Below are positions 1 through 39,545 of a DNA stretch of 39,545 nucleotides, in pieces. Made by a program: the position numbers and the translations under genes. Origin of the DNA: a virus (Duplodnaviria > Heunggongvirae > Uroviricota > Caudoviricetes); the IMG/VR virus record IMGVR_UViG_2913152634_000006; one strand, 5' to 3'. Below the pieces are notes generated by a model. The model did no database searches, had not been told where the DNA came from, and worked only from the letters and a program-made list of their open reading frames with translations. How positions within the stretch are numbered: the stretch's first letter is position 1; every line of letters starts with the position of its first letter.

Positions 1-1020
1 TTAATCCCCCGTGGACACTGCGTGGACACTTACGCCACCTTTCAGCGGATTAAGGGCCACCGCATCCTGCAGGTAATCCGGTGCAAAATGCGCATATGCC
101 ATTGTTTGCTGAATGGTTGCGTGACCAAGAATCTTCTGAAGCGCAATAATGTTTCCTCCGTTCATCACAAAATGGCTGGCGAACGTATGCCGCAGCACAT
201 GTGCAGCCTGGCCTTTTGGTAAATCGGGCTTAACTCTTTTCAGCGCCAGGCAGAATTCCCGGTACTTCACCTCAAACAAGCCGCCTGTTTCTCTGGTTTT
301 GATCGCCTCACAAACTGCCTGCGAAATTGGCACTGTTCTCTTCCGGCCATTTTTGGTTTCAAGAAACGTTACACGGTTATGAACTATCTGTTCACCACGA
401 AGCTTACAAGCTTCACTCCAGCGCGCCCCTGTGCTTAAACACAAAAGCGCAACACGCCAGTAGTCGCCCTCCAGTGTATCGAGCAATAGCGCCACTTCCT
501 TCTGTGACAGGAACGCCATTTCTCGTGGAGATACATAAAGAATAGAAATTCCCCTTACTGGATGTTCTGCATCCCAAAGACCTATTTTTTTCAGCACGGT
601 AAACATTCCGGATAACCGATTCATGTACCTGTTAGCAGATGACGGTTTCAATCCTTCAGCTATCTTTTGAGAACGCCACGCGATAATTTTCAGCTTATCA
701 AGATCCACAGCCTGCATATCAGCGCCAAGCTCATTGATTATGTTGCGCAGTTGTTTTCGGTCTTCTTCCGCCTTACGCCTGTGCTGGCCGTGATACATCC
801 ACCACAACTCAAGCAAATCATTTAGCGTTCGACGATCACGGTAGCCCTGTATATATTCCCGCTTTTCAGCGTTCGCCATGATGTAGCGTTCAGTGGCCAC
901 CGCTACCGATTTTTTGTCAAATACCTTACGCACGCGCTTTCCCTTGCGTCCGTTCGGCCTGATGTCCAGCAAATAACGACCATCTTCGAGCTTCTTAATC
1001 GACATTACGAAGCCCTCCAA
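1..1020 (-). CDS. int: Phage integrase, tyrosine recombinase (P2/186 Int-like)
   Basis: 339-aa ORF; C-terminal region with conserved R...HxxR...Y-type catalytic context (ARWSEA, HVLRHTFAS, MAYAHF) typical of tyrosine integrases; first gene at prophage end, convergent layout with repressor as in P2. Confidence 0.9.
   Translation of the reverse strand: MEGFVMSIKKLEDGRYLLDIRPNGRKGKRVRKVFDKKSVAVATERYIMANAEKREYIQGYRDRRTLNDLLELWWMYHGQHRRKAEEDRKQLRNIINELGADMQAVDLDKLKIIAWRSQKIAEGLKPSSANRYMNRLSGMFTVLKKIGLWDAEHPVRGISILYVSPREMAFLSQKEVALLLDTLEGDYWRVALLCLSTGARWSEACKLRGEQIVHNRVTFLETKNGRKRTVPISQAVCEAIKTRETGGLFEVKYREFCLALKRVKPDLPKGQAAHVLRHTFASHFVMNGGNIIALQKILGHATIQQTMAYAHFAPDYLQDAVALNPLKGGVSVHAVSTGD
12..35. 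repeat. Candidate att core, left copy (inside the 3' end of int); contains an internal 10-bp tandem duplication cgtggacact x2
   Basis: gtggacactgcgtggacacttacgc at 12-35 recurs as gtggtcactgcgtggacatacgc at 38365-38386 (about 21/24 identical, direct orientation), bracketing the whole prophage. Confidence 0.35.
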
Positions 1021-1101: not shown

Positions 1102-1440
1102 TCAGCGGGATAATTTTTGGATTGTTTCGGTTGAAACGCGATCTCCCTCCGAATTGCAGGAACCATCAAGAGAGAGAGCCGGAGAAATTTGCCCGACCTC
1201 CGGCATCGTTTCATCTGTTGATAACCAATAAGCATACTTCTTAAATTTAGGGTGTTTCGTAACCTTAAGTAAGGCACCCTCTGTTACTTGCTTCCCCCTC
1301 ACCTCATAGTTAGTTACCGTCCCATAAGGCAGCCCAACACAATCCGCAAACTCCTGGCGGGTCATACCTTCTGCTTCACGAATCAGGCGAAATTTTTCAC
1401 CCATGCTTGACAAAGATGCCATATCGGGCATATCCTCCAT
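1102..1440 (-). CDS. Immunity repressor (P2 C-type, XRE-family HTH)
   Basis: ORF track 1102..1476; HTH-like segment MTRQEFADCVGLPYGTVTNYE; start placed at internal ATG (MEDMPDMASL...) at 1440, ATG at 1476 is the alternative; transcribed divergently from cox as in the P2 immunity switch. Confidence 0.7.
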   Translation of the reverse strand: MEDMPDMASLSSMGEKFRLIREAEGMTRQEFADCVGLPYGTVTNYEVRGKQVTEGALLKVTKHPKFKKYAYWLSTDETMPEVGQISPALSLDGSCNSEGDRVSTETIQKLSR

Positions 1441-1480
1441 CGCAACATGCCACATCGGGCACAAACATAAAAACACTCAA

Positions 1481-1510
1481 ATAAGCCGATATAAGCCATT
1501 TTGAGCCATT
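1481..1510. promoter_or_regulatory. Candidate operator: three tandem direct 10-bp repeats (ataagccgat / ataagccatt / ttgagccatt) in the repressor-cox intergenic region
   Basis: Directly read; P2-type C repressors bind direct repeats flanking the early promoter; a TATAAG -10-like hexamer lies within the repeats about 45 bp upstream of the cox ATG. Confidence 0.4.
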
Positions 1511-1535
1511 CGAACGAATTAGGGAGATTACCACA

Positions 1536-1823
1536 ATGAGCGAATCAGAGCTTGGGGGGTTCATTCAGGTAGCACCATATCCACTTGAAGCGGTGCCATA
1601 TCAACTATTCGCCAAGATGATCGGCCGCAAGGAATCCACAGTCAGAACCATGATTGACGCAGCAAAGCTACCGACAATTGACTTTGTGAAACCAGGTTCA
1701 CTAAAGACGCGTGCATCAGAAAACTGGGTATATCTGCCAGCATTTAACGAAGGCATGCGCAAAGCGTTTTTTGAGCAACCGAAAGAACGCCGCGACGCAT
1801 GGTTGTTGTGGCTGGGACTTTAG
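1536..1823 (+). CDS. cox: Cox-like excisionase / early transcriptional regulator
   Basis: 95 aa; C-terminal NWVYLPAFNEG...RRDAWLLWLGL closely resembles recalled P2 Cox (YWVYLPAWNNG...WLMWLGL); position immediately right of the repressor, divergent. Confidence 0.8.
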   Translation: MSESELGGFIQVAPYPLEAVPYQLFAKMIGRKESTVRTMIDAAKLPTIDFVKPGSLKTRASENWVYLPAFNEGMRKAFFEQPKERRDAWLLWLGL

Positions 1824-37386: not shown

Positions 37387-37584
37387 ATGACGCAAAATGT
37401 ACGATGCAAAAATTGCAACAAACTACTTGCCCGCGCCTCATTTCACTACATTGAAATAAAATGTCCGCGCTGCAAAACACTTAACCAGATAACGAGAGCC
37501 ATCGAGCACCCCACACACATGAGGAGTTATGACCGTGGGGATCGCAATCCAGCACCAACCAGCACATACACCGGAACACACTAA
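37387..37584 (+). CDS. Com-like zinc-finger translational regulator
   Basis: MTQNVRCKNCNKLLARASFHYIEIKCPRCKTLNQI resembles recalled Mu Com (MKSIRCKNCNKLLF...HIEIRCPRCK); ATG 37387 sits 7 nt after AGAGGTG; 3' end overlaps the downstream methyltransferase by 56 nt. Confidence 0.7.
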   Translation: MTQNVRCKNCNKLLARASFHYIEIKCPRCKTLNQITRAIEHPTHMRSYDRGDRNPAPTSTYTGTH

Positions 37585-38320
37585 GGTTTATCAGACTGAC
37601 AATGCCACGCTCTGTCGTGGGAATGCGCTGGAAATATTGCCGCTGATTGAGCCAGAAAGCATTGATGCCTTAATCACTGACCCGCCTTACAGTTCGGGTG
37701 CGACACACAAGGCCGGACGCACCAACCAGGGCAGCCATGCAAAATATCTGAACGGCGAGAACCTTCACCGCTTTGATGGGTTCGCGGGTGAAAACATGGA
37801 CGCCCGTTCGTGGGCTTACTGGACACAATTATGGATGGCACAGGCACACCGCGCAGTCAGGCCGGGCGGTTATGCCCTGGTATTTACTGACTGGCGACAA
37901 CTACCAGCTTTAACCGATGCGTTTCAGGCCAGTGGCTTTACATGGCGCGGCATCATTGCGTGGAACAAAGGGAGGGGGTCACGAACACCACATACCGGGT
38001 ATTTCCGGCATCAGTGCGAATACATCGTCTGGGGCAGCAAAGGCCATTTAGATAAATCGCCTTCGGGACCGTTCGACGGCTGCATGACGTTCCCGGTTAT
38101 CTCGTCAAAGAAAATGCACCCGACCGGAAAACCAGAAGAACTAATGGCGGAACTGGTCAGGACTGTGAATAGTGGCGGAACAGTCCTTGATCCTTTTATG
38201 GGGTCAGGGACAACGGGTGTGGCTGCACTGAAAGCAGGACGCAAATTTATTGGTATAGAAACCAGTGATCATTATTTTGATGTAGCAACACAACGGCTCA
38301 AAACGGCGATCGAACCATAA
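37529..38320 (+). CDS. DNA methyltransferase, beta-class N6-adenine/N4-cytosine type (DPPY before FxGxG)
   Basis: 263 aa; catalytic ALITDPPYSS near the N-terminus and SAM-binding VLDPFMGSGTTGVAA near the C-terminus (circularly permuted beta-class order); SD GAGGAG 2 nt upstream of the ATG; start overlaps the com-like gene. Confidence 0.85.
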   Translation: MTVGIAIQHQPAHTPEHTKVYQTDNATLCRGNALEILPLIEPESIDALITDPPYSSGATHKAGRTNQGSHAKYLNGENLHRFDGFAGENMDARSWAYWTQLWMAQAHRAVRPGGYALVFTDWRQLPALTDAFQASGFTWRGIIAWNKGRGSRTPHTGYFRHQCEYIVWGSKGHLDKSPSGPFDGCMTFPVISSKKMHPTGKPEELMAELVRTVNSGGTVLDPFMGSGTTGVAALKAGRKFIGIETSDHYFDVATQRLKTAIEP

Positions 38321-38364
38321 GAGTAAGCCCGCAATGTTGCGGGCTTACTCTACCTCTCGAAAAT

Positions 38365-38386
38365 GTGGTCACTGCGTGGACATACG
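38365..38386. repeat. Candidate att core, right copy (attR)
   Basis: Direct imperfect repeat of positions 12-35; lies between the last prophage-associated gene and the putative host gene. Confidence 0.35.
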
Positions 38387-38549
38387 CTGATACAAATCCT
38401 TTTATATCAATAAATTAAATCTTTGTTTTTTTCATCAACAAGGATTTTCACGTTTGTGTTACCTGTATGAGACGAGAGTTAACCAGACAAGTGTGCCATA
38501 ATCTCGCGGCCAGGCATACTTGCGAAGATTTCAGGTATAAGGATACGTA

Positions 38550-39545
38550 ATGATACAACCTATTTCCGGCCCTCCTCCTGGGCAACCACCAGGTCAGGGA
38601 GATAACCTGCCGTCTGGCGCGGGCAATCAGCCTTTATCCAGTCAGCAACGTACTTCGCTGGAAAGCTTAATGACGAAAGTGACCTCACTGACGCAACAAC
38701 AAAGAGCAGAACTGTGGGCGGGTATCAGGCACGATATTGGTCTATCGGGAGATTCACCGCTGCTTTCGCGTCACTTCCCTGCCGCTGAGCATAATCTGGC
38801 GCAACGTCTGTTGGCCGCGCAAAAAAGCCATTCTGCCCGCCAGCTTTTAGCGCAATTAGGGGAGTATTTACGTCTGGGGAATAATCGTCAGGCGGTCACG
38901 GAGTATATCCGTCATAACTTTGGTCAGACGCCGCTGAATCAGCTCTCACCGGAGCAATTAAAAACCATTCTCACCCTGTTGCAGGAAGGGAAAATGGTTA
39001 TTCCGCAACCACAGCAGCGCGAGGCAACCGACCGTCCTTTATTACCGGCGGAGCACAATGCGCTCAAACAGCTGGTGACCAAACTTGCGGCGGCAACGGG
39101 GGAACCCAGCAAACAGATCTGGCAATCGATGCTGGAACTTTCCGGGGTGAAAGATGGCGAGTTAATTCCAGCGAAACTGTTTAACCATCTGGTGACCTGG
39201 CTACAGGCGCGTCAGACGCTAAGCCAGCAAAATACGCCGACACTGGAATCACTACAGATGGCGCTAAAACAACCTTTAGATGCCAGTGAACTGGCGGCGT
39301 TATCGGCATATATCCAGCAAAAATATGGCCTTTCTGCGCAATCATCGCTTTCTTCTTCCCAGGCCGAGGATATTCTTAACCAGCTTTATCAACGGCGGGT
39401 TAAAGGGATTGATCCGCGTGATATGCAACCGCTGCTTAATCCTTTTCCACCGATGATGGACACGTTGCAAAATATAGCAACGCGTCCCGCGCTGTGGATA
39501 CTGTTAGTCGCGATTATCCTGATGCTGGTCTGGCTGGTTCGTTAA
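38550..39545 (+). CDS. flk: Probable host gene: Flk-like flagellar regulator with C-terminal membrane anchor
   Basis: 331 aa; Pro/Gln-rich N-terminus (MIQPISGPPPGQPPGQ) and C-terminal hydrophobic anchor (ALWILLVAIILMLVWLV); recalled match to enterobacterial Flk in length and architecture; lies outside the candidate attR. Confidence 0.5.
   Translation: MIQPISGPPPGQPPGQGDNLPSGAGNQPLSSQQRTSLESLMTKVTSLTQQQRAELWAGIRHDIGLSGDSPLLSRHFPAAEHNLAQRLLAAQKSHSARQLLAQLGEYLRLGNNRQAVTEYIRHNFGQTPLNQLSPEQLKTILTLLQEGKMVIPQPQQREATDRPLLPAEHNALKQLVTKLAAATGEPSKQIWQSMLELSGVKDGELIPAKLFNHLVTWLQARQTLSQQNTPTLESLQMALKQPLDASELAALSAYIQQKYGLSAQSSLSSSQAEDILNQLYQRRVKGIDPRDMQPLLNPFPPMMDTLQNIATRPALWILLVAIILMLVWLVR

Follow-up and report, generated by a model that had tools for sequence, protein, structure and literature searches.

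Which protein reads the three tandem 10-bp direct repeats that lie between the divergent repressor and cox genes of a P2-like prophage? The question arises in a stretch of viral DNA of 39,545 nucleotides, analysed at its full length and called the window throughout, in which a first-pass annotation had recognised a P2-type immunity switch and had taken the repeats for operators of the immunity repressor. The recognition of the switch was upheld: the locus is the P2-type immunity switch of a P2-like Escherichia coli prophage of the Xuanwuvirus/P88 lineage, and the genes are divergent as described, with a minus-strand HTH repressor and a plus-strand protein of the Pfam family Phage_Cox. The genes concerned are:

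1..1005, minus strand: integrase gene (Pfam Int_N and Phage_integrase; annotated integrase in relatives)
1102..1422, minus strand: C-type immunity repressor gene, 106 aa, HTH (Pfam HTH_3, under the gathering score)
1536..1823, plus strand: cox gene, 95 aa (Pfam Phage_Cox, PF10743, E 2e-22), encoding the proposed binder of the repeats, or boxes, 1-3

The window C protein is 37% identical to P2 C, which is also its sole PDB match (2L49/2XCJ, E 4e-16), and the window Cox is 56% identical to P2 Cox, with 4LHF as its sole PDB match (E 5e-26). The gene directly downstream of the boxes, in the early operon, encodes the cognate Cox-family protein, and by analogy with P2 the integrase would be the second gene of the Pc operon. 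The repressor had been delimited as 1102..1440; its start is most likely 1422 (106 aa) instead, the position used by PGAP (NCBI) and by the Shae_phiSM record, with a GGAG 12 nt upstream in all three repressor types. Public annotations of this start conflict: among phages that are nearly identical or related, the protein is given as 100, 106, 112 or 122 aa (1102-1476). With the repressor starting at 1422, the regulatory region of the window therefore extends left to ~1405. Escherichia phage P88_4B11 (genus Xuanwuvirus) matches the region at 99.7% identity and PhiR44_2 at 98.4%. A scan of genome contigs for the C protein yielded a single, distant locus in Pseudoalteromonas, and an Rfam search of 1000-2100, with E-values up to 1, returned no RNA family.

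The three tandem direct 10-bp repeats at 1481-1510 were confirmed and are unique in the window:

1481-1490: repeat unit 1, ATAAGCCGAT
1491-1500: repeat unit 2, ATAAGCCATT
1501-1510: repeat unit 3, TTGAGCCATT

The units are pairwise identical at 8/10, 8/10 and 6/10 positions, share an invariant AGCC core and follow one another with a period of exactly 10 bp. At only 30 bp, the array is too short for generic repeat tools: Tandem Repeats Finder (score of at least 30) gave no row in 1350-1600, and the 10-bp units are absent from the list of a general repeat search. Its significance was therefore shown by a custom scan of the whole 39.5-kb window for three successive 10-mers, each matching the next at 8/10 positions or more, in which 1481 was the sole site, against 0.01 expected by chance per dinucleotide-shuffled window; shuffles of 1405-1535 yielded no such triple (0/5,000). 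The bare hexamer TAAGCC shows no enrichment across the window (18 copies vs 15 expected), and isolated matches elsewhere are therefore meaningless. The three repeats are very probably operator sites for some repressor.

Were that repressor C, the repeats would be its half-sites, in a three-copy variant of P2 O1/O2. Direct repeats are what P2-type C proteins recognise (PMC1904268, PMC2995052), these ones are located in the C-cox intergenic region, and they are invariant in 21 immunity-compatible loci. The surroundings of the early promoter, however, offer a better pair, exactly at the P2/WPhi operator position:

1407..1436, plus strand: predicted early promoter Pe, TTGACA (1407-1412), 18-bp spacer, TATCCT (1431-1436)
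1413-1430: candidate C operator O1, AAGATGCCATATCGGGCA, exactly filling the Pe spacer and covering the C start codon
1444-1461: candidate C operator O2, AACATGCCACATCGGGCA, 31 bp from O1, at ~+1 to +18 of Pe

Pe is the best sigma-70 promoter match in 1000-2100 (10/12) and also the top score in a separate scan of our own; its layout is kept in other repressor types (TTGACA-18-TATACT and TTGATT-18-TAAACT), and P2 Pe occupies an equivalent position. O1 and O2 were returned by a repeat search as an 18-nt direct repeat, of which the 15-nt cores match at 14/15 positions, a level equalled in 0/1,000 shuffles; no further copy of the core with fewer than 3 mismatches occurs elsewhere in the window. The two repeats co-vary with C type, their cores are invariant in the 21 loci, and O2 corresponds in position to P2 O2. 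The C operators of P2, WPhi and P2 Hy dis, the three that have been mapped, flank the Pe -10 or -35 (PMC1904268). This P2-type layout of a direct repeat pair flanking a Pe hexamer is found at 1413-1430/1444-1461, whereas the 10-bp repeats sit 45-75 bp downstream from the -10 predicted for Pe and flank no Pe hexamer. We thus regard 1413-1430 and 1444-1461, ~50 bp to the left of the boxes, as candidates for the immunity repressor's own operators.

Natural recombinants reveal which repeats follow which protein. The comparison set consisted of IMG/VR loci encoding relatives of the window Cox, which fall into three groups by their C-adjacent sequence:

Type A, the window (also P88_4B11 and PhiR44_2): C recognition-helix region LPYGTVTNYEVRG
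Type B, Shae_phiSM-like: C recognition-helix region VSQYNLKNYEILG
Type C, Chuche-like: C recognition-helix region IPLNTIQKYETGH

Between types, identity is 49-62% in the Pe/operator segment (-135..-61), 88-95% in the segment with the boxes and the ribosome-binding site (-60..-1) and 87-96% in the cox coding sequence. The repeats in the Pe spacer and then just past the -10 read GATCATATGTGATC and TTACATGTRATAC in type B, and TTTCTCATATGAGAAA and TTTCTAAGTTGAGAAA in type C. The array AATAAGCC / TATAAGCC / TTTGRGCC is common to all three types; in types B and C it is extended by a fourth box in the same phase, AATAGCCAAA, which is absent from the window. Within type A, the 21 loci vary only at 1411, 1431, 1432, 1442, 1443, 1462 and 1473, and both repeat sets are constant. 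In the reciprocal recombinants L081, L082 and L084 the C protein shares 82-86% identity with that of the window, and the Cox is very different; they retain TTGACA-18-TATCCT with related Pe-flanking repeats (ATGTGCCATGT..GGAAT and its partner), and upstream of cox they carry a different period-10 array of the GTCT type, which in L081 reads GTTCCAGAGT GTTCTAGAAC GGTCTGCAAA GGTTTGCAAA. More distant cox genes (~53% identity) are closely preceded by their own period-10 arrays, and the array of one of these loci (L053) fits the P2 consensus, as in TTAAAAGCA and TTATAGGCA.

Since the same boxes accompany three C types and different boxes accompany other Cox proteins, the 10-bp array tracks Cox, and the Pe-flanking repeats track C. 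That the 10-bp repeats do not change with the C recognition helix, and are swapped when Cox changes beside a similar C, is contrary to what is expected of C operators, and we consider it very unlikely that they are C half-sites; position, inheritance and the comparison with P2 all point to Cox, and the original assignment to C is abandoned. Conservation in immunity-compatible relatives had been put forward as a test of that assignment. The repeats are indeed conserved, in 21/21 loci, but the test does not discriminate, because heteroimmune relatives also retain them. The two cassettes, C with its Pe operators and Cox with its Pc boxes, seem to be exchanged as independent modules that join near 1465-1478. 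Five loci (L006, L042, L044, L045 and L046) encode, upstream of cox (locus 1501), a 195-aa protein in which two whole C-type repressor domains are joined in frame, the first of type C and the second of type A (L006) or type B; such a fused double repressor could give immunity to two classes of phage simultaneously.

Part of the co-inheritance of boxes and cox could be simple linkage, because the box segment is linked to cox and also holds the cox ribosome-binding site and probably Pc. Two candidates exist for the location of Pc:

1488..1514, minus strand: region expected to hold the Pc core, by positional homology with the annotated P2 and WPhi records
1493 to 1488, minus strand: Pc -10 candidate TATATC, homologous to the annotated Pc -10 of P2
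1513 to 1508 and 1536 to 1531, minus strand: Pc candidate TCGAAT plus TTGTGG, resembling the WPhi layout

A consensus scan for Pc gave weak candidates and nothing convincing. The boxes overlap either candidate, and their overlap with Pc itself is something we infer from homology with P2 and WPhi. A TATAAG hexamer had also been proposed as -10-like; it is present at 1490-1495 on the plus strand, but it has no acceptable -35 partner and goes unreported by the promoter scan. Taken to its limit, the linkage argument would have the segment kept only for the Pc core, the cox leader and the ribosome-binding site, its period reflecting phased A/T tracts that provide curvature or a UP-like element. The segment is A/T-rich with phased ATAA/TTTG, its linkage to cox is tight enough for co-inheritance to follow from it, and the Pc candidates overlap it. 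Yet the repeated part is the G+C core AGCC and not A/T tracts alone, unrelated Cox lineages each have their own motif at this place, including GTCT and P2-like TTAWWGGCA types, and the homologous boxes of P2 fit a consensus obtained from Cox-protected regions (PMC3936717). Neither the repeated AGCC core nor the lineage-specific arrays would be accounted for by linkage, and we judge retention for these other functions alone to be unlikely.

The consensus in question, the P2 cox-box, reads TTAAA(G/C)NC(A/C); it was derived from Cox-protected regions, recurs with a spacing of 10-11 bp and overlaps the -10 and -35 of Pc (PMC3936717). Placed in the P2 cox-box register, the repeats become the following boxes, scored over the eight specified consensus positions:

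1480..1488, plus strand: box 1, AATAAGCCG (unit 1481-1490), 4/8
1490..1498, plus strand: box 2, TATAAGCCA, 6/8
1500..1508, plus strand: box 3, TTTGAGCCA, 6/8
1510..1518, plus strand: possible degenerate fourth box, TCGAACGAA, 5/8, in phase with boxes 1-3

The window boxes match the consensus in part; the three boxes of P2 score 7, 6 and 8 of 8. Box 1 is invariant in the 21 type-A loci and reads AATAAGCCT in heteroimmune relatives; box 2 is kept in all three repressor types and equals the middle box of P2, TATAAGACA, save at the N position; and box 3 is kept as TTTGRGCCA in every relative with the same cox. The in-phase TCGAACGAA is conserved together with cox and is a possible fourth Cox box. 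In all, the window shows three clear boxes, with one or two more that are degenerate. A diverged Cox may here be reading a diverged box; Arg30 in the recognition helix of P2 Cox aligns with a Thr in the window Cox.

The annotated P2 record, which marks Pe, O1, O2 and Pc, allows the two switches to be aligned. The P2 box nucleotides were deduced from the consensus together with this record. Counted from the cox ATG, the elements lie at:

Pe -35: P2 -121..-116; window -129..-124
O1: P2 -111..-104; window -123..-106 (18-nt repeat, copy 1)
Pe -10: P2 -98..-93; window -105..-100
O2: P2 -89..-82; window -92..-75 (18-nt repeat, copy 2)
Three tandem boxes: P2 -51..-24; window -56..-28
Pc -10: P2 -43..-38; in the window the homologous TATATC, a candidate only
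Pc -35: P2 -23..-18

The P2 boxes, TAAAAGGCA / TATAAGACA / TTAAACGCA, are tandem, lie over the annotated Pc -10 and fit the cox-box consensus, which again speaks against C half-sites at the homologous place in the window. The first-pass annotation had read the three copies as a variation on the two described for P2; P2 carries three boxes here too, and they belong to Cox. From the sequence comparisons, the three 10-bp repeats are most likely the core of a Cox operator over Pc in this P2-like prophage of the Xuanwuvirus/P88 lineage.

One more conceivable reader is another DNA-binding factor, such as the arm-binding domain of the integrase or host IHF. Int and IHF both act at the switches and att sites of P2-like phages, and Int arm sites typically consist of direct repeats. 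The probable Int arm motif in this case, however, is GTGGACA, which is unlike the boxes, and inspection by eye found no WATCAANNNNTTR-like IHF match in 1470-1515; we hold it to be very unlikely that the repeats serve such a factor. GTGGACA occurs at 11-17 and 22-28, in tandem at the 3' end of int, and at 38376-38382, near the right end. These motifs match annotated P2 sites (TGTGGACAC twice, in the P' arm) and are probably the Int arm sites of this phage.

The window represents an integrated prophage whose right end (38350-39545) matches the P arm of P88_4B11 attP up to CAACAAGGATTTT (~38440-38452) and then continues as host DNA. Beyond this attR-like junction lies a host gene, a 331-aa ORF at 38550-39545 that matches one annotated as flk, for flagella regulator Flk, in a related record. 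At the other end, window position 1 truncates the prophage, and the attL side with its P' arm is missing. In the 37529-38349 region, a 263-aa ORF matches a Chuche region annotated as DNA methyltransferase. After it, still within the prophage but close to its end, stands a perfect hairpin, AGTAAGCCCGCAATGTTGCGGGCTTACT (38322-38349), a likely terminator. The TAAGCC pair at 38324/38342 is nothing more than this hairpin.

P2 Cox has a target in attP as well. A P2-type Cox operator is expected to have a footprint of ~70 nt and a second box cluster in attP, which for this phage would fall beyond the window. The attP of P88_4B11 (L002:455-476, outside the window) carries the box-like motifs TTTAAGCC (+) and ATATAGCC (-), on opposite strands and directly ahead of both the int stop codon and the Int arm sites; the attP Cox site of P2 is located likewise. 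The pair is suggestive, but only suggestive, of a second Cox site in the attP of relatives, and since the relatives with these motifs all share one attP, their conservation is uninformative.

How a Cox operator over Pc would work can be modelled on P2, in which Cox monomers bind cooperatively, head to tail and one per helical turn, and wrap the DNA (PMC3936717). Both P2 Cox and 186 Apl bind with high cooperativity, bend or wrap DNA and can spread to neighbouring DNA (PMC3936717, PMC7498355). The window Cox would likewise line up its monomers head to tail on boxes centred on AGCC. We expect that Cox produced from Pe occupies boxes 1-3, and perhaps also TCGAACGAA (1510-1518), and thereby occludes Pc. 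The boxes are proposed to lie over or just downstream of a weak leftward Pc that transcribes C and int; because Cox would sit over Pc, its occupancy would shut off the synthesis of C and integrase and commit the phage to lytic growth. At high Cox concentration the filament may extend left toward Pe, as extrapolated from P2. In the opposite state, C would bind the two 15-18-bp direct repeats flanking the Pe -10 (1413-1430, 1444-1461) and block the transcription of cox. Pe and Pc would face each other, with transcripts that are predicted to overlap.

The candidate C operators have a peculiarity of their own. Both contain an internal dyad, TGCC-N6-GGCA. The C start ATG (1422-1420) falls in the middle of O1, within CATATG, and the ribosome-binding site of C (GGAGGA, 1437-1432, minus strand) directly adjoins the Pe -10; every one of the three repressor types shows this nesting. 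At the equivalent place type C has the dyads TTTCTCATATGAGAAA and TTTCTAAGTTGAGAAA and type B has GATCATATGTGATC; the type C palindrome is perfect over 16 bp, and in variants the dyad arms are retained while the centres vary. The structure of the symmetric P2 C dimer raises a puzzle regarding its non-palindromic half-sites (PMC2995052). We suggest, tentatively, that the C operators here could be direct repeats of a dyad-symmetric TGCC-N6-GGCA, each taking one symmetric C dimer; the right arm is GGAA in the L081-L084 group, which weakens this dyad-symmetric reading. If it is true, P2-type C proteins are not obligate binders of non-palindromic repeats, and the dyad operators would suit a symmetric C dimer better than the non-palindromic half-sites of P2 do (PMC2995052). 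In L083, another IMG/VR locus, the second Pe-flanking element upstream of cox is a perfect 18-bp palindrome, CATGTCTAATTAGACATG, which goes with an altered recognition helix, LSYDTITNYETRG.

The 141-bp switch was found in 214 of 5,426 complete E. coli genomes (~4%), and a correct assignment of its proteins matters for annotating and engineering P2-like prophages. An easy mis-annotation is corrected here, namely that of taking any direct repeats in a P2-type switch for C operators, and coordinates for both operators are now available for testing. One Cox and box module is common to three repressor types, and the reciprocal case exists too, which presents the halves of the P2 switch as exchangeable cassettes and the recombinants as ready-made natural controls for binding experiments.

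Set against known systems, the architecture is an ordinary one, already known from P2, WPhi and 186, and the switch in the window is an unstudied P2-type member. The P2 cox-boxes resemble those of the window in being three same-orientation tandem boxes with a 9-10-bp period and a TAAG.C core between convergent Pe and Pc, a promoter layout that is predicted in the window. They differ in the core, which is AGCC in the window and AG.CA in P2, and in number, with three clear boxes in the window against at least 6 reported for P2 Cox targets, where DNA bending by Cox needs more than 4 (PMC3936717).

The candidate O1/O2 are a direct repeat pair flanking the Pe -10, like the C operators of P2, WPhi and Hy dis, with a spacing of 31 bp, against 22, 26 and 34 bp in P2, Hy dis and WPhi respectively (PMC1904268). 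The mapped operators that flank the Pe -10 are 8 bp long and 22 bp apart in P2 and 10 bp long and 34 bp apart in WPhi (PMC1904268); the Pe annotated in the WPhi record has its -10 between TATTGGTGAC repeats. Unlike the 8-10-bp cores of P2, WPhi and Hy dis, the window core measures 15-18 bp, contains the internal dyad TGCC-N6-GGCA and, in O1, overlaps the C start codon. The 10-bp repeats, by contrast, share no positional feature of the P2, WPhi and Hy dis operators.

In WPhi the Cox site is separate from the C operators and lies between O2 and the cox gene (PMC5009727), as the boxes lie between candidate O2 and cox in the window; it is made of two 12-nt repeats within Pe-Pc (CCTAGAARGGAC) 20 bp apart, in contrast to three boxes 10 bp apart, and WPhi Cox is 41% identical to the window Cox. 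The Apl operators of 186, and the X1-X1.5-X2 sites of lambda Xis, are also direct repeats one helical turn apart, and small dual-function excisionase/regulators bind such repeats cooperatively, head to tail (PMC7498355). The Apl sites lie between face-to-face lytic and lysogenic promoters (pR and pL), as the window boxes are predicted to do, although 186 differs in having seven sites, a CI repressor of another family and unrelated sequence motifs. P2-like phages place repressor operators over the lytic promoter and separate Cox or Apl repeats over the lysogenic promoter (PMC7498355).
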